From a virus (taxonomy: Duplodnaviria; Heunggongvirae; Uroviricota; Caudoviricetes), in IMG/VR virus record IMGVR_UViG_2545824714_000008: a stretch of 27,463 nt of DNA; one strand, written 5' to 3'. Position 1 is the stretch's first letter. Each line of letters opens with the position of its first letter. A program made the position numbers and the translations under genes. Shown here one piece after another: positions 1-27,463 of the stretch. The notes under the pieces were generated by a model. The model made no database searches, was not told the DNA's origin, and saw nothing but the letters and a program-made list of their open reading frames with translations.

Positions 1-352
1 AGTTTTTTAAGTGACGTAAAACCGTGTTGAGGCCAACGCCCATAATGCGGGCAGTTGCCCGGCATCCAACGCCATTCATGGCCATATCAATGATTTTCTG
101 GTGCGTACCGGGTTGAGAAGCGGTGTAAGTGAACTGCAGTTGCCATGTTTTACGGCAGTGAGAGCAGAGATAGCGCTGATGTCCGGCAGTGCTTTTGCCG
201 TTACGCACTAGCGCTGATGTCCGGCAGTGCTTTTGCCGTTACGCACCACCCCGTCAGTAGCTGAACAGGAGGGACAGCTGATAGAAACAGAAGCCACTGG
301 AGCACCTCAAAAACACCATCATACACTAAATCAGTAAGTTGGCAGCATCACC
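1..352 (-). mobile_element. IS1 insertion sequence, partial (about the first 350 bp including terminal inverted repeat and insA; continues beyond window start)
   Basis: Reverse complement of 247..352 reads GGTGATGCTGCCAACTTACTGATTTAGTGTATGATGGTG...GTGGCTTCTGTTTCTATCAGC, matching the IS1 end and insA start as I recall them. Reverse complement of 1..60 matches the insA 3' region with a few substitutions. Confidence 0.85.
171..246. repeat. Perfect 38-bp tandem duplication (171..208 = 209..246) inside the IS1 insA reading frame
   Basis: Both copies read tagcgctgatgtccggcagtgcttttgccgttacgcac. The junction creates CGC-TAG in the insA frame on the minus strand. Confidence 0.9.
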
Positions 353-455
353 TAATGACGTCAGATTTGCCGTAAACCTGGATGCCTTATCGCGTAGCGG
401 TGTAAAGGTCAACCCGGATGTCTTAATGCTCGCACGGAAGAAAAATGATGGATAA
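353..455 (+). pseudogene. yfiR: yfiR 3' remnant (periplasmic repressor of DgcN), truncated by the IS1 insertion
   Basis: The frame translates ...[33 protein letters not shown], overlaps the dgcN start in typical operon fashion, and begins abruptly at the IS1 end with an in-frame TAA at 327..329 inside IS1. Confidence 0.75.
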
Positions 456-2621: not shown

Positions 2622-3431
2622 GTGTCAAAAAAGGATACAATCCAGATTATCGATATCAGGATGCAGAGACCAATCATAGCAAGAATAGAAGAAGAAAATT
2701 TAAATTTGACATTGCAAATGTCAGATAAAGCCACATTATCTGGTGCGACAGTTAGTTTTTTCACCCCAAATAACGTTTCTATATTCTTATCCTCAGCAAA
2801 AAAAGAGCTCTCAAAATCCAATTCTATATATAAAAGTCTTTTTGGAAAAATACACAAAACCAAACATAAAAACTTTAAAATTTCCGACAAAGCCCTGCCG
2901 AGACTCTATAATTACTTTGAATCAATTCAGACGGCCATTATTTCTATGTATACTGCAATTGAGTCTTTTGCAAATATATGCATACCACATGATTATGTTT
3001 ATGAAAAAAACAATGCCAAGGGAATCAAAGAATCCTATAGCAAAGAGCTAATTGAGCGATATATACCAACAAGTGAAAAAATAGATAAAATCCTACCGTC
3101 TATTTTAAATTGTGATTCGCCTAAAGGTTCAAAACTATGGCAAGATTTTAAAAGCCTTGAGTCACTTAGAAATGACATAATTCACCCCAAGACAACAAAG
3201 AAAAACACAGAAACAAAAGAAGACTCATCTTTTTTATGCATTTTACTATCAGATGACTTTATAAAAAAAGTTTCCTGTGGATTTGATTTGGTATCTTATT
3301 TTTGCAAACAAGACACTACTCATAGTCTTTTCCCAATGGGTTTCGGTGAAATTGAACTTAAACCTGTCCCAATTAAAGCCGGTGACTTTGAAAAAGTTGA
3401 TGATCATGATGAAATAGAATTACCATCATAA
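2622..3431 (+). CDS. Hypothetical protein, low-GC orphan (about 269 aa from GTG 2622; the ORF opens at TTG 2586)
   Basis: Long uninterrupted ORF in markedly AT-rich DNA with GGAG 6 nt before GTG 2622. Contains an R-x4-H stretch (LRNDIIHPK). No family recognised. Confidence 0.6.
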   Translation: MSKKDTIQIIDIRMQRPIIARIEEENLNLTLQMSDKATLSGATVSFFTPNNVSIFLSSAKKELSKSNSIYKSLFGKIHKTKHKNFKISDKALPRLYNYFESIQTAIISMYTAIESFANICIPHDYVYEKNNAKGIKESYSKELIERYIPTSEKIDKILPSILNCDSPKGSKLWQDFKSLESLRNDIIHPKTTKKNTETKEDSSFLCILLSDDFIKKVSCGFDLVSYFCKQDTTHSLFPMGFGEIELKPVPIKAGDFEKVDDHDEIELPS

Positions 3432-4957: not shown

Positions 4958-5818
4958 TTACACGTGTTTTTCCAATGTGAAAACTACAGCCCCGGCAGGA
5001 GTAATGTCTGTAATGTTGCATTCAAACTCAGCAGACTTATTTGACAACCTGACTTTTCCACCGGGCAAGCGAATTACATCAAAAACATCAAGAGCGCCGT
5101 CGATATCAATTAACCAGCGACCATTACTTATATTCGAAGCAGAACAGTCGACAAGCCAAGAGGCAGCTACACCGTCAACAAAAATCAATTCCCCTGAGTT
5201 AGAAGGAATCATTGAGGGGTCAGGATGCCACGTTCCTGCATCCTTAAGCTCACCAGATTCAAGACGAGATTTTTTAATAGAAAAACCAGATGTGACATCT
5301 TCCCTGTTAGCTCGCATTTGCCCCTTGCCTGTTGCTAACCATTCCAGTGACGTATCGGTATCAAGAGCGCATGTAACAACAACATCACCAGGGAAAAAAT
5401 CTCGCCTTACCCATGTGCTAATTGTGCCAGAGGAAATGCCGAGCAAATCACCGAGCTCCTTTTGCATGGTAAAGCCATACGCATCAAGAATCCTACGCAA
5501 AACGGTTTTACCACCATTCGTCATAATCTCGTCATAAAGCTCTTTGCCTTTTAACTTGCAACTGGCTCGCTCGTGATTTGCATTTGCAAGTTCTCCATTT
5601 ACAAGCCAATTGATATCAGCTCCCGTGTCAAGACAACACCTAACTATGACATTGCCAGGTATTGCATCACGCTGAACCCAGCCGCTAACGCTGTGTTTAG
5701 CGATACCTAGCAGGTCAGCCAAATCCTTTTGCATCTTGACCCCATAGGCTGACATTAAGCGTTCCAATACGCCGTTCGTTGCACTAACACGCCACTGAAC
5801 ATCAAGCTCAGAACTCAT
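4958..5818 (-). CDS. cI: CI-type prophage repressor with a tandemly duplicated N-terminal DNA-binding domain
   Basis: 286 aa. Two similar ~60-aa segments (LERLMSAYGVKMQKDLADLLGIAKHSVSGWVQRDAIPGNVIVRCCLDTGADINWLVNGE and LRRILDAYGFTMQKELGDLLGISSGTISTWVRRDFFPGDVVVTCALDTDTSLEWLATGK) resemble the 186 CI N-terminal domain. Position is next to int and divergent from the lytic operon. Confidence 0.8.
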   Translation of the reverse strand: MSSELDVQWRVSATNGVLERLMSAYGVKMQKDLADLLGIAKHSVSGWVQRDAIPGNVIVRCCLDTGADINWLVNGELANANHERASCKLKGKELYDEIMTNGGKTVLRRILDAYGFTMQKELGDLLGISSGTISTWVRRDFFPGDVVVTCALDTDTSLEWLATGKGQMRANREDVTSGFSIKKSRLESGELKDAGTWHPDPSMIPSNSGELIFVDGVAASWLVDCSASNISNGRWLIDIDGALDVFDVIRLPGGKVRLSNKSAEFECNITDITPAGAVVFTLEKHV

Positions 5819-11933: not shown

Positions 11934-12938
11934 CTAATTTACATGTATGTAGAGTTCACCGTCGCCAGACCAATCGGGACACTCTAAAACAAGCCCAAAC
12001 TGCTTGAATATTTCATCAATGATTATTGTTATCTCCCGAAAATCACCAAAACCTGTAATGTGCTGGTCATTAAACTTCCCATAAAGATTCTGAAAAGCAA
12101 TGCCTAATTCTGATAATTGATATCTTATCTTTGAGTTGGATAGTGTAAGGGATAGCTTTGGATCGTATTCTTTAATATTGATGTTTAGAGAATGGACATA
12201 ACCCATCGCATAAGCATAAGAGTTGATGATTAGCCTGATACGTTTTTTTACTTCAAGATACATGTCATTCAGAGAAATATTACCGTACTTATAACCCCAG
12301 ATGAGTTTTTCAATCTCGTCAGATACTTCATTTACAACAGTGTCAAGATTCTCTAAAAATAAATCGACAGTTTCTTGAGGGGCAGACCCCGAAGACATGT
12401 AATTAGCGAGATATTCAGACCATGCACGCGTGGCTGAGATAAGAAGCGCGCTACCATACTCGTTGACTGTAAAGTTTTGGGCTAAGCATGTTAGTAAGTT
12501 TTTTTCATGTACGTGCACTAATTCATGGTGAATGCGATGGATGACTGCGAGGTATCCTTCTTCTTTCAGTTTTAAGAAGCTACCATCATTGAAAAGCTCA
12601 ACAAAAAAATCAATCGATAGCACAAGGGTATATTCTTCATATAGCCCATCATTGCCAATTTTTGTTACTAACTGCCCGACGGCTGCGCCCTGTTTGCTAT
12701 TGGTAAATGAACTAGGGGATTTGTGTTGGTAAGAGGATGTTACCTTTTGAAGAGCTTCACTGAAGTTATAGGAAACAATCACGCATTTTAATTTGGAGAT
12801 ATCAAGATTGAGATTCTTTGTTAAAGCTCGGATAGCTTCTAGTGTGAAATTACCGATATTATTTGCTTCTTGCTCAGTAGCGAAACCTTCGAGGGTTATT
12901 TTAAAATCAGTTTCCAAAATATTAATCTCCGCGCCCAT
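11934..12938 (-). CDS. Orphan 334-aa protein in a low-GC insertion between cos and the portal gene (candidate accessory/defence gene)
   Basis: Uninterrupted ORF in AT-rich DNA, co-oriented with portal and terminase. Contains an HHELVH (HExxH-like) stretch and no obvious membrane segments. No Shine-Dalgarno evident. Confidence 0.65.
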   Translation of the reverse strand: MGAEINILETDFKITLEGFATEQEANNIGNFTLEAIRALTKNLNLDISKLKCVIVSYNFSEALQKVTSSYQHKSPSSFTNSKQGAAVGQLVTKIGNDGLYEEYTLVLSIDFFVELFNDGSFLKLKEEGYLAVIHRIHHELVHVHEKNLLTCLAQNFTVNEYGSALLISATRAWSEYLANYMSSGSAPQETVDLFLENLDTVVNEVSDEIEKLIWGYKYGNISLNDMYLEVKKRIRLIINSYAYAMGYVHSLNINIKEYDPKLSLTLSNSKIRYQLSELGIAFQNLYGKFNDQHITGFGDFREITIIIDEIFKQFGLVLECPDWSGDGELYIHVN

Positions 12939-21890: not shown

Positions 21891-22766
21891 CTAGCCTCGT
21901 AAATATCGTTTAGTAAATTTCGTGTTTGGTCTGGATGATAGGATTTGTCTTTCTATTTCACTATCACAGTCTATATAGTCTAGTGTATTAGCTTCTATAA
22001 GTTTGTTCACGTCAATATTTTTTGCATCGATTATGTTGGCATTTCTAAGGTTTGCATTGGTGTATTCCACTTTATCCAAATCACACTCTCTGAGTACGCA
22101 ACTTTTCATTTCCGCATTGGAAAAATCCCCACCATATAAATAGCAGCCTTCAAAAATAACACCGTTTAACTTTGAATCCTGAGCTTTAATATTTTTTATT
22201 TTACACTTTATAAATTTTACGTTTTTCATTTTGCTCTTGCTAATATTTAATGCCTGGATTGTACATCCAGTGAAAGAACAGTCTCTTATGTTAGATTTTT
22301 CCATATTTAACCCAGATAGTTCTGAGGTTTTAAAGTGTAAGTATTTAATGGTAAAAAGGTCACCCAACTCCATTCTGGGTATGTCTATATTGAAGACACC
22401 TTTATTGTTGAGCTGTCTTATTATTTTTATTTTTTGTATTTTCAAATCAACATTAACGTGCTTAGCTAAGTTTCCCAAATCCTCAAGAAGTTCATTAATC
22501 GTTTCTTTGTTTTGTCTTCTGTATTCAAAGTAATAAAGGATGACACCTAATACAAAAAAATCCAAAATGGATGAATTTGCATTTATTAGGAACCCAGACA
22601 GGAATGAATCATTGTAATTACCATAGTGTATAGAGGCAAGTGTTACGCCAAATGCATATAAAATAAAAATAATAAACACGTGCTTCATTTTGCATAAGGA
22701 TTGTATTATTGGTTTTATGGCATCAATTTTGTTCATTGCTGCAGCAGCGAAAGATTTAAAAGTCAT
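21891..22766 (-). CDS. Membrane-anchored pentapeptide-repeat protein, low-GC cargo at the S/V junction
   Basis: 291 aa with two N-terminal hydrophobic segments (HVFIIFILYAFGVTLASI, ILDFFVLGVILYYF) and about 19 consecutive pentapeptide-like units in the C-terminal half. AT-rich and on the opposite strand to the tail genes. Confidence 0.7.
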   Translation of the reverse strand: MTFKSFAAAAMNKIDAIKPIIQSLCKMKHVFIIFILYAFGVTLASIHYGNYNDSFLSGFLINANSSILDFFVLGVILYYFEYRRQNKETINELLEDLGNLAKHVNVDLKIQKIKIIRQLNNKGVFNIDIPRMELGDLFTIKYLHFKTSELSGLNMEKSNIRDCSFTGCTIQALNISKSKMKNVKFIKCKIKNIKAQDSKLNGVIFEGCYLYGGDFSNAEMKSCVLRECDLDKVEYTNANLRNANIIDAKNIDVNKLIEANTLDYIDCDSEIERQILSSRPNTKFTKRYLRG

Positions 22767-24814: not shown

Positions 24815-25415
24815 CCGGCTATTACCCGTTGGCTCGTCGCCGCTGGAGGTTGCCGCCGCTGCCGCGCTCTCTGAGATTCAGCGTGTGCCGGTACCGCTGC
24901 GCACTCTGTGGAACTGGCGCACCTGCCCGGTAAAACTGCTGCCGTATCTGGCGTGGGCGCTGTCGGTCGACAGGGGGGATGAGAAATGGCCGGAGGCGAC
25001 AAAGCGTAGCGTCTGCGCGTCCTCGTTTTTCGTCCATCAGCACAAAGGCACCATTAGCGCATTGCGTCGGGTGGTTGAGCCGCTCGGCTTTCTGATTGAA
25101 GTGCGCGAGTGGTGGCAGCTCAACGAGGAGCCAGGCACATTCCGCCTCGTTGTCGGCGTGCTCGATAGCGGCATTACTGACGAAATGTATCAGGAGCTTG
25201 AGCGCCTGATTGAAGACGCCAAACCGGCAAGTCGCCACCTGACCGGGCTGGCTATCAGTCTGAGCTCGACCGGCGAACTGTATGTCGGCGCGGGATGCTA
25301 TCACGGCGACGCGCTGACTGTTTACCCCTACACCCCCGAGGAGATTGTCGTCGGCGGTGAATATTACCCGGCCTCGGCCATCCATTTGATTGATAACCTG
25401 AGAGTGAACGCATGA
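24807..25415 (+). CDS. I: Baseplate protein (P2 gpI family)
   Basis: 202 aa, overlapping the J stop and preceding the tail-fibre gene. Confidence 0.82.
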   Translation: MNDRLLPVGSSPLEVAAAAALSEIQRVPVPLRTLWNWRTCPVKLLPYLAWALSVDRGDEKWPEATKRSVCASSFFVHQHKGTISALRRVVEPLGFLIEVREWWQLNEEPGTFRLVVGVLDSGITDEMYQELERLIEDAKPASRHLTGLAISLSSTGELYVGAGCYHGDALTVYPYTPEEIVVGGEYYPASAIHLIDNLRVNA

Positions 25416-26368
25416 CCGCAAAATATTTTGCCATTCTGACCAATCAGGGCGCGGCGCGGCTGGCGAACGCGGCGGCACTCGGTACCAAACTCAACCTGAC
25501 GCAGATGGCCGTCGGTGATGCGAATGGTACGTTGCCGACCCCTGACCCGGCGCAGACGAAGCTCATTAACCAGAAACGCATCGCGCCGCTGAACCTGCTG
25601 ACCGTTGACCCGGCCAATACCAGTCAGATTATCGCGGAACAGATTATTCCCGAGAATGAAGGTGGTTTCTGGATCCGCGAGATTGGTCTCTATGACGATG
25701 ATGGTATTCTGATTGCCGTGGCGAACTGTCCGGAGACCTACAAGCCACAACTGCAGGAGGGAAGCGGTCGCACGCAGACCATTCGCATGATTCTGATTGT
25801 GTCGAGCACATCGGCAATCACCCTGAAAATCGACCCGGCAGTCGTGCTGGCAACGCGCCAGTATGTCGACGACAAGATTATCGAGGGGAAAGGATATGCT
25901 GATGACCTGATGAAAAAACATGTTGAGGCCGCCAATCCACACAAGCAGTACCCGTTAATCGCTAATGCTCTGAAAGAAATGGTTGACGCGGGACTGGCCG
26001 GCGACGTTCTTAAAAACCTTGGTTTGGGGGAATTGGCTCTGGCTGGCGCAACAACCGGCGCTATGTTGGTGAATGGGTATGTAGCAATTCCATTAATTAT
26101 TTCTGGCGTTCGGAGACCACTTATTATCCAGTGGGGAGTGGGGCAGTTTGGGGGAAGTCTGGGGGATGATGCGGGATATTTAAACAATTTCCCTTTCGCT
26201 TTTCCGTCGGCGTGCTACGTGATGGTTGCCAGCCACGTGGGGCATACACCTTCGGGTGCCGGAATACTATCTGCTTCCGCAATCACAAAAAGCGGCTTTC
26301 GTGGTTTTTCCAGCGTAGCGACTGCCGCAAATCCTGTATCGGGCTGTTATGTTGCTATAGGAGGGTGA
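25412..26368 (+). CDS. H: Tail fibre protein: P2 gpH-like constant N-terminal region fused to a short variable C-terminal region
   Basis: The first ~160 aa carry P2 H-like motifs (MAVGD, GGFWIREIGLYDDDGILIAVAN, EGSGR, YVDDKI). Total length is only 318 aa, and a recombination-site-like sequence lies inside at 26007..26032. Confidence 0.85.
   Translation: MTAKYFAILTNQGAARLANAAALGTKLNLTQMAVGDANGTLPTPDPAQTKLINQKRIAPLNLLTVDPANTSQIIAEQIIPENEGGFWIREIGLYDDDGILIAVANCPETYKPQLQEGSGRTQTIRMILIVSSTSAITLKIDPAVVLATRQYVDDKIIEGKGYADDLMKKHVEAANPHKQYPLIANALKEMVDAGLAGDVLKNLGLGELALAGATTGAMLVNGYVAIPLIISGVRRPLIIQWGVGQFGGSLGDDAGYLNNFPFAFPSACYVMVASHVGHTPSGAGILSASAITKSGFRGFSSVATAANPVSGCYVAIGG
26007..26032. other. hix/gix/cix-like 26-bp recombination site inside the tail-fibre gene (left boundary of an invertible segment)
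   Basis: TTCTTAAAAACCTTGGTTTGGGGGAA fits the Hin/Gin/Cin site pattern TTC..AAACC-NN-GGTTT..GAA and lies at about codon 199 of the fibre gene, where constant and variable parts join. Confidence 0.65.
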
Positions 26369-26369
26369 T

Positions 26370-26804
26370 GTGTTTTTTAGTCCATCTTTAAATATTTTTG
26401 TGAATCCTGCGCTTAAGGATGACTACATCAATGTAAATTCATGGCCAGATGATGCTGTTGAAGTTGATGAGCAGGTGTATATTGAGTTTTCCGGATTACC
26501 GCCGAAAGGAAAAATCCGTATCGCTGGGGAAAATGGTTTTCCTGCATGGTCTGAAATTCCACCACCAACGCATGAGGAACAGATTGCCGCAGCCGAATTG
26601 AAAAAACAGCAATTGATTAATCAGTCCAACGAATATATGAATACCAAGCAATGGCCTGGTAAAGCGGCTATTGGTCGTCTGAAAGGTGAGGAACTGGCGC
26701 AATATAATTTGTGGCTGGATTATCTGGACGCACTGGAACTGGTTGATACCTCCAGTGCTCCAGATATTGAATGGCCTACGCCTCCGGCAGTTCAGGCCAG
26801 ATGA
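26370..26804 (+). CDS. Tail fibre assembly chaperone (Tfa), forward copy
   Basis: 144 aa from GTG 26370 (GGAGGG upstream). C-terminal motif LDYLDAL...SSAPDIEWP is shared with the convergent copy. Confidence 0.8.
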   Translation: MFFSPSLNIFVNPALKDDYINVNSWPDDAVEVDEQVYIEFSGLPPKGKIRIAGENGFPAWSEIPPPTHEEQIAAAELKKQQLINQSNEYMNTKQWPGKAAIGRLKGEELAQYNLWLDYLDALELVDTSSAPDIEWPTPPAVQAR

Positions 26805-27369
26805 TATCCGGCGCGGTGCTCGTAACTGTTGCCGTCACCGCGTCAATGTAATCAAGCACGGCGTTAAGCCGGGTGGTTTCTGCCTGCGTCAGCTTCCGCC
26901 CGGCCTGTAATTTCAGCTGAATCAGACTGATGGAAGCCATTGCAGCATCAATCAGTGACTGGCGCTGTGCTTCTGCCGCTTCTACTGCGGCACCGTGTTG
27001 TGCCTCAGTATCTGTCACCCATTTCTCACCATCCCATTTATCATATGGCGTTAACGGTGAAAGCGTGACATAACCGTTTTTGATGGCACCGATATAATCC
27101 ACTGTAACAGCAGCACCATTTTCGATTGAGTAAACAGTCTCATTGCGATGGTCTTCTTCATGGCTCCATCCCTTACCTGTAAATACTGCCACTCTTCCCG
27201 GAATGTTTTCGCCAGGGTCAATACCAGTGGAACAGGCGGGCATACTTACGCCAGTATTAATATATTCATCAGACCAGCCCGTATACTCAGATGTTTCAGC
27301 ATCATAATAAAAACAACGCATATCGCCCGGCACTGTAGCCAGCCCATTTTCATCAAAAACAGGTTTCAT
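26776..27369 (-). CDS. Alternative tail fibre assembly chaperone (Tfa'), inverted orientation
   Basis: 197 aa, convergent with and overlapping the forward tfa by 29 nt. C-terminal motif LDYIDAV...STAPDIIWP. Confidence 0.8.
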   Translation of the reverse strand: MKPVFDENGLATVPGDMRCFYYDAETSEYTGWSDEYINTGVSMPACSTGIDPGENIPGRVAVFTGKGWSHEEDHRNETVYSIENGAAVTVDYIGAIKNGYVTLSPLTPYDKWDGEKWVTDTEAQHGAAVEAAEAQRQSLIDAAMASISLIQLKLQAGRKLTQAETTRLNAVLDYIDAVTATVTSTAPDIIWPELPEA

Positions 27370-27463
27370 TATTTAGCCCTCACCAGAAAGTTAAATGCAA
27401 TATTTCGCGGTCTGACAGCAACAAAATTCACACCATCACCCACAGAGTTACTGGTGAAATTAA
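27369..27463 (-). CDS. C-terminal end of an alternative tail-fibre variable segment (partial; continues beyond window end)
   Basis: The minus-strand frame reads ...NFTSNSVGDGVNFVAVRPRNIAFNFLVRAK* with its stop overlapping the Tfa' start as TAATG. Confidence 0.6.
   Translation of the reverse strand, partial: NFTSNSVGDGVNFVAVRPRNIAFNFLVRAK

Follow-up and report, generated by a model that had tools for sequence, protein, structure and literature searches.

The right-hand end of a P2-like prophage raises the question of whether this element can exchange the receptor-binding end of its tail fibre and, if so, which enzyme catalyses the exchange. The prophage lies in IMG/VR virus record IMGVR_UViG_2545824714_000008, a stretch of 27,463 nt that was analysed as a whole and is referred to here as the window. 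Its phage genes run from int to H, and the genes to their left (yfiR', dgcN and yfiB) are chromosomal. According to the annotation of the identical region in E1739, the genes follow the P2 order, with int, CI/CII, A, Q, P, O, N, M, L, X and the lysis genes, continuing with R, S, V, W, J, I and H and then with the sheath and tube genes; Pfam matches to Baseplate_J, Tail_P2_I and Phage_tail_fib were found in the window. Judged by this gene content and order, the element is a complete-looking P2/186-like prophage (Peduoviridae) integrated beside yfiB. The baseplate and fibre block comes to its end in the last 2 kb of the window, within the late operon V-W-J-I-H.

The P2-type tail-fibre open reading frame occupies positions 25412-26368 on the plus strand and encodes 318 aa. 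An N-terminal tail-collar fibre domain (PF12571, E 9e-63) covers aa 1-150 and a gp53-like C-terminal domain (PF21882, E 8e-12) covers aa 237-317. Between these two domains lies a 26-bp crossover site of the pix/gix/hix type (26007..26032), which consists of two 12-nt half-sites around a TT core at 26019-26020 (TTCTTAAAAACC TT GGTTTGGGGGAA) and forms codons 199-207 of the gene, encoding VLKNLGLGE. It separates a constant N-terminal part outside the invertible segment (aa 1-198, 25412..26006, plus strand, delimited by the reading frame and PF12571) from a variable end, hereafter end A, that is expressed in the orientation of the window (aa 208-318, 26033..26368, plus strand, carrying the PF21882 match at E 8e-12). 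This left site is unique in the window even when 3 mismatches are allowed, and its palindromic heart AAACCNNGGTTT occurs once there against an expectation of 0.04. By hand count, it is identical to the left site of e14 in K-12 at 22 of 26 positions and to Mu gix at 18 of 26. Comparison with other genomes reveals exchange on both sides: the same cassette stands behind different constant parts, with similarity starting at window positions 26007-26019, and the constant part precedes other cassettes in many genomes, with similarity stopping no more than 3 nt from the end of the site. By these alignments, the left site is a real module boundary, and the hix/gix-like site that a preliminary description had placed at the junction of the constant and variable parts of the fibre gene is found at exactly that junction.

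Downstream of end A, the plus strand encodes its predicted partner, a tail-fibre assembly chaperone (tfa) of 144 aa (26370..26804; PF02413, E 3e-35), annotated in E1739 as tail fiber assembly protein WP_000466305.1. It overlaps by 29 nt with a convergent second tfa on the minus strand (26776..27369; 197 aa; PF02413, E 2e-25), the predicted partner of a second variable end, end B, and silent in this orientation. Of end B itself, the window holds only the last 30 codons (27372..27463, minus strand). The frame is open from 27461 down to 27372; it reads NFTSNSVGDGVNFVAVRPRNIAFNFLVRAK followed by a stop, its last part being ...VRPRNIAFNFLVRAK, and this stop overlaps the start codon of the second tfa. 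The reading frames and PF02413 matches thus bear out the forward tfa, the convergent minus-strand tfa and the second fibre C-terminus of the preliminary description. A promoter and terminator scan of the cassette returned neither an excess of promoters nor a terminator above chance, which leaves the late operon upstream as the source of its expression.

The window ends before the right border of this arrangement, and we infer the state of that border in the source genome from four genomes that are 99.8-100% identical to the window. Over 25 kb, the identity to the window is 99.9-100% for E1739 and E1535 and 99.8-99.9% for JKHS016 and N21; a base-by-base comparison with E1739 gave 3 mismatches in 8064 nt, all of them private to the window. 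In E1739, end B runs on for ~120 codons past the window, giving ~150 codons in all, up to a partner site (L001 7970-8428). This partner, TTCTCCCAAACC AA CCTTTTAGAAAA, is known from the relatives and lies in inverted orientation at E1739 L001 8414-8439, equivalent to window positions 27813-27838. Genomes with 99.9-100% identity to the window have it 350 nt beyond the last window position, in agreement with the earlier expectation of an inverted second site just past the end. Together with the left site it constitutes the best inverted repeat of the locus (I1) in E1739, with matching TT/AA cores. Three of the half-sites fit TTCNNNNAAACC, and the outermost one is degenerate (..AAAAGG); the outermost half-site of hixR is likewise degenerate. 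The core-to-core distance is ~1806 bp. On the evidence of sites and gene layout, the window holds the left four-fifths of an invertible tail-fibre cassette of ~1.8 kb and of the Gin/Cin/Pin/Hin type.

We inverted the E1739 sequence in silico at the cores and found that the constant 198 codons join end B in frame. The inverted product has an uninterrupted fibre frame of 354 aa with the 197-aa tfa behind it, and this fibre is annotated in E1535 as WP_134881174.1. Neither fibre alternative has decayed, both ends and both chaperones being open, and the second fibre end, on whose preservation the idea of a switch had leaned, is intact.

The preliminary description had further placed an invertase gene just beyond the window, and here the relatives tell otherwise. 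To the right of the partner site, E1739 carries a stub of 200 nt (L001 8494-8693, window-equivalent 27893-28092, placed by annotation and alignment), annotated as a frameshifted, incomplete recombinase and followed directly by the tail-sheath gene. Its sequence is ATGTTTATCGGT...GGATCGCCTCGGGTATCTCAACGC. When aligned with pinE, gin and the corresponding gene of TW10598, the stub is homologous from the ATG to ...TGGAAACTGGATCGCCTCGGG (WKLDRLG, codon 66) and then jumps to ...ISTLYKKFPAS at the extreme C-terminus, so that nt 1-196 are fused to the last ~40 nt. The internal deletion spans approximately codons 67-172; with it, most of the catalytic domain and the helix-turn-helix are lost. In addition, the stubs of E1739 and E1535 have lost 1 nt, and their frame stops after 44 codons; the stub of 52F4 has a different frameshift, a 4-nt insertion. 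The same deletion junction was found in seven genomes (E1739, N21, JKHS016, E1535, 52F4, MINF_2E and AST217), with the frameshift confirmed in five of the seven (by sequence in E1739, E1535 and 52F4, by annotation in N21 and JKHS016). An intact serine recombinase gene (Resolvase and HTH) adjoining the site is absent from all seven genomes with this stub allele.

An intact gene does occur in TW10598, a more distant relative (99.6% over the query), which encodes a 188-aa invertase at the position of the stub. This protein matches PF00239 (Resolvase) and PF02796 (HTH_7) and aligns with Mu Gin (3UJ3) at E 1e-92. Mu, e14 and TW10598 carry a gene of ~570 nt where E1739 has the stub, and the 5' part of the stub is ~77% identical to the pinE-like invertase gene of TW10598. 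These alignments indicate that the locus descends from a standard Gin/Pin system that lost its enzyme and is no longer autonomous. One could still suppose that the source genome itself encodes an intact invertase just past the window, flipping the cassette in cis as a self-contained switch: its right flank lies beyond the analysed stretch, TW10598 has the intact gene exactly there, and P2-like phages such as pro483 show the order fibre-tfa-tfa-fibre-invertase. Against this stand all four genomes with an identity of 99.8-100% over 25 kb (E1739, E1535, JKHS016 and N21) and three more, every one with the deleted stub, and we consider a cis-acting enzyme in the source genome very unlikely.

With the adjacent invertase broken in the closest genomes, the question becomes whether the cassette still turns. 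Two junction queries of 401 nt, one for each orientation, were run against 5,426 complete E. coli genomes. The unflipped junction, in the orientation of the window, was found in five genomes (E1739, N21, JKHS016, 52F4 and TW10598), and the flipped junction gave one full-length match, at 100% identity, in E1535. The prophage of this genome is the same one: its flanking genes have identical protein accessions, the pentapeptide-repeat moron and the stub are both shared, and the 354-aa fibre and its tfa are in forward orientation. The 197-aa chaperone is there a forward gene behind the 354-aa fibre, and end A lies on the opposite strand, adjoining the stub. When E1739 is inverted at the cores, its sequence agrees with that of E1535 in all but 3 of 9401 nt. 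The inner half-sites have traded places between the two genomes (GGGGGAA for GGGAGAA and vice versa), which confines the exchange to the 10 nt TTGGTTTGGG, including the central TT. Such a pattern is, as read from the two aligned genomes, the signature of site-specific exchange. General recombination by RecA between short inverted repeats, with no site-specific enzyme, would find its inverted repeats present; however, the two sites share only 10 consecutive identical nt at the exchange, far below the length that RecA recombination needs, and the exchange falls on the core of a canonical invertase site. We regard this explanation as barely credible.

The order of events can be read from the distribution of the deletion. 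The deletion allele is common to prophages that are just 96-97% identical, whereas E1739 and E1535, which alone share the IS1/yfiR junction found at the window's left end, are only 3 SNPs apart; the deletion is therefore older than the split of these two genomes and older than the flip. Since the invertase was dead before the flip, the enzyme that catalysed it must stem from a gene outside this locus. From these genome comparisons we conclude that the switch most likely works and is driven in trans. The proposal that the prophage can switch thus holds in that both orientations occur (five genomes against one flipped), and it needs amendment in that an invertase from elsewhere in the cell would be required.

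Candidate sources for such an enzyme were sought in the same chromosomes. As a query, we combined a lineage-specific tag from the pentapeptide gene with the 318 nt of invertase core that are missing from the stub, and used the tag alone as a control. Tag and core together matched 3 places each in the chromosomes of E1739, E1535 and JKHS016 and 2 in N21, and the tag alone matched 1 in each. The comparison of these counts points to one or two further Gin/Pin-type core loci per chromosome, with two each in E1739 and E1535 (counted whether intact or broken). Among three invertase genes inspected in E1739, none is intact and all are truncated. Several elements were rejected as sources in this genome: e14 is absent, icd being followed directly by iraM; Rac is absent, with ttcA followed by uspF; the pin gene of Qin is cut by IS1 after 351 nt and belongs to another subfamily with no DNA-level match; and the lambdoid prophage in potC/potB has a gin stub only, of 64 codons. 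Precedent for inversion in trans exists: the P segment of e14 is turned by PinQ, an invertase of Qin, at TTGGTTTGGGAGAAGG (PMC12529663). The inner half of the partner site described here has this very e14 repeat sequence, TTGGTTTGGGAGAAGG. Kutsukake reportedly described in 2006 such inversion by the invertase of another prophage for Fin and Hin as well.

The potC/potB prophage is of interest in its own right. It represents a second case in E1739, in which a Mu G-like cassette is accompanied by the 64-codon gin stub. E1535 is without that prophage, and the cassette therefore offered no second flip comparison between the two genomes.

The truncated invertase genes lend some weight to the possibility that the cassette is a frozen relic that no longer inverts. 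The flip in E1535 would then date from a time when an invertase was still present, or would have been introduced from another prophage with the cassette in the opposite orientation, by homologous recombination that crossed over within the constant part and within the 5' end of the invertase gene. Consistent with a relic, the cis invertase is dead, the three inspected E1739 invertase genes are all truncated, five of six genomes share one orientation, and donors exist, in that this cassette is found at 98-99.9% identity in e14-type elements of some E. coli, with pinE annotated. On the other side, the dating makes the flip younger than the deletion (prophages at 96-97% identity against 3 SNPs per 9.4 kb), and the flip is exact at the site, with its flanks free of extra differences. 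Two more invertase-core loci per chromosome in E1739 and E1535, and the open frames of both fibre ends and both chaperones, likewise argue against a relic, which we consider unlikely. The explanation we favour, and hold to be likely, is that of an orphan cassette of ~1.8 kb whose cis invertase is dead and whose inversion depends on a related invertase from another source in the cell.

Flipping in trans would be helped if the cis elements of the locus had outlasted the enzyme gene, and the stub contains a stretch that resembles such an element. The stub shares with pinE, gin and the TW10598 gene two conserved 15-mers of the form G-N13-C, which occupy gene nt 22-36 and 71-85. They start 49 nt apart, together cover 64 nt and have their centre ~120 nt from the core; the comparison with a known enhancer uses this span and distance rather than the 48-bp spacing given for Fis sites. 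The Hin enhancer measures 65 bp, has a Fis site at either end and is found ~100 bp from hix (PMC3798978), and for Gin, the passage of that source which cites Kahmann 1985 places a stimulating site inside the invertase gene. The span of the 15-mers and their distance from the site fit a Hin-type enhancer. Going by this resemblance, the stub with its nt 1-196 fits a putative retained Fis enhancer, the match falling short of proof.

Taken together, we propose the following mechanism. The 26-bp site splits the fibre gene such that the constant 198 codons, predicted to form the baseplate-attachment domain, would remain fixed and be transcribed from upstream. Inside the cassette, the two presumed receptor-binding ends lie head to head, each with its own assembly chaperone behind it. 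Only the end facing the constant part would be expressed, yielding either the 318-aa fibre with the 144-aa tfa or, after inversion, the 354-aa fibre with the 197-aa tfa. A trans-acting serine invertase would cut at the TT/AA cores and exchange strands, possibly helped by Fis bound to the stub. If the two fibre ends recognise different receptors, as we suppose, induced particles would have one of two host ranges.

A further step would be to regard the orphan cassette as a maintained state, in which the invertase was shed and both sites and the enhancer-bearing 5' stub were kept under selection. The second case in E1739 hints that stubs of ~200 nt recur; on the whole we find selective maintenance rather improbable. 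If it is true, the Pin/Gin enzyme of a co-resident prophage would set the host range, or else a surface or defence phenotype like that of StfE2 from which the host benefits.

The favoured explanation bears on how such loci are annotated. A 'partial' tail protein flagged by pipelines at this place would be the silent half of a working two-state fibre gene, not junk, and the 'frameshifted recombinase' would not be junk either, as it probably still supplies a cis element. The host range of released particles would depend on the invertases of other elements in the cell, and the locus would add one more example to the view that the fibre switches of E. coli prophages are cross-wired. Comparison of sister genomes suffices to catch such flips.

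How does this locus compare with known fibre switches? The design itself is already known from Mu G, P1 C, e14 P and the fibres of P2-like prophages, as the preliminary description had recognised in part by likening the layout to Mu and P1, and the present locus is a further case. In Mu, the G segment and Gin are arranged as here, with the constant fibre part outside, two ends and their chaperones head to head inside, inverted 26-bp sites and the invertase gene, here a stub, at the right site; the Mu enhancer lies in the 5' end of that gene. The Mu cassette differs in its 3 kb, its longer fibre ends and its TC/GA core, whereas the cores here are TT/AA and a working cis invertase is missing. 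The P1 C segment with Cin follows the same plan as Mu G.

The layout of the e14 P segment in K-12 (stfP-tfaP-tfaE-stfE-pinE) is the same as here, with a 29-nt overlap of the convergent tfa genes in both and a length of 1797 bp (PMC12529663) against ~1806 bp. The cassette sequences are nevertheless mostly unrelated, only the 3' ends of the tfa genes reaching 93%, which rules out K-12 e14 as the nearest relative. The cassette as such circulates, with copies of 98-99.9% identity in e14-type elements of other strains and behind other constant parts. In addition, e14 is a lambdoid remnant that carries PinE, whereas the present cassette belongs to a complete P2/186-like prophage and neighbours an invertase stub. 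The same distinction applies to the inversion of e14 P by PinQ, where the K-12 target keeps its own PinE; the target described here is without an enzyme.

Other P2-like elements share the phage type. A P2-like prophage of EPEC E2348/69 has an invertible tail-fibre locus of which both orientations coexist in culture (Goldberg et al. 2014, PMC4272514). The P2-like phage pro483 has the same gene order as the present locus, together with a DNA invertase. Fels-2, with Fin, is another P2-like prophage with an invertible tail-fibre locus. All three elements encode their own invertase, which is lost here. In conclusion, the understanding of how fibre-inversion systems work is unchanged by this locus; its only unusual point is the orphan state, in which sites and stub are kept, the enzyme is lost and flipping is evidently ongoing, a modest extension given the known cross-reactivity of these enzymes.

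The invertase gene to the right of the tail-fibre cassette carries the same internal deletion in E. coli E1739 (locus L001, 8494-8693) and in strain 52F4 (locus L006, about 5003-5249), and the frameshifts in this deletion allele differ by strain. Whereas the stub shared by E1739 and E1535 has lost one nucleotide in a run of G, that of 52F4 contains a 4-nt duplication. Differing frameshifts of this kind are the pattern that would be expected if selection no longer acted on the coding capacity of the stub, although its DNA has been kept. E1739 additionally carries a second orphan invertible cassette (locus L010, 42952-48400) in a lambdoid prophage inserted in potC/potB, in which a fibre gene and a tfa gene are followed by a reversed tfa, a reversed fibre end and a gin stub. 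The fibre and tfa parts of this cassette, including the reversed ones, are 94% identical to the Mu G segment, and the first 120 nt of the 64-codon stub are identical to Mu gin. Together with the pin gene of the Qin remnant (locus L013, 3630-3980), which is cut by IS1, the potC/potB stub brings the number of decayed invertase genes in the E1739 chromosome to three.

In the window, a pentapeptide-repeat protein of 291 aa is encoded on the minus strand at 21891-22766 (31.6% G+C, compared to a window mean of 50%). Its gene is inserted with the tail-completion genes on one side and baseplate gene V on the other, both on the opposite strand; this site is a moron position of P2-like phages. Of 5,426 complete E. 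coli genomes, only 4 have a copy with at least 99% identity, and a further 14 carry a ~67% relative in the same place. A PADLOC search with this protein gave no match. A 334-aa ORF (11934-12938, minus strand; 37.6% G+C) separates the replication/DinI region from the portal gene, at the place occupied in P2 by old and tin, a recognised hotspot of anti-phage cargo; neither Pfam nor PADLOC gave a match for it. A 269-aa ORF on the plus strand (2622-3431; 32% G+C) is flanked by yfiB and the prophage integrase, and may represent either cargo carried at the end of the prophage or an islet of its own. Its Pfam search returned no match, and its sole PADLOC match was a weak one to an RT-associated HEPN model (E = 1.2e-4).

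At the left end of the window (1-455), yfiR is cut down to its last ~34 codons and adjoins an IS1 end, with dgcN (yfiN) and yfiB intact beside it; this junction is common to E1739 and E1535 only. Because YfiR is the periplasmic repressor of the diguanylate cyclase DgcN (YfiN), the IS1 insertion may have de-repressed c-di-GMP synthesis.

Three single-base differences (24247, 24975 and 25887) distinguish the window from all four of its closest genomes (E1739, N21, JKHS016 and E1535), so its source genome is absent from the collection that was searched. The difference at 25887 falls in the fibre's constant part, where it turns the Val of IIEVKGY into Gly (IIEGKGY). Ahead of the crossover site, this constant part comprises a baseplate-attachment domain and a short linker, with little else. 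At 318 or 354 aa, the tail fibre (25412-26368) is about half as long as P2 gpH, which has 669 aa.
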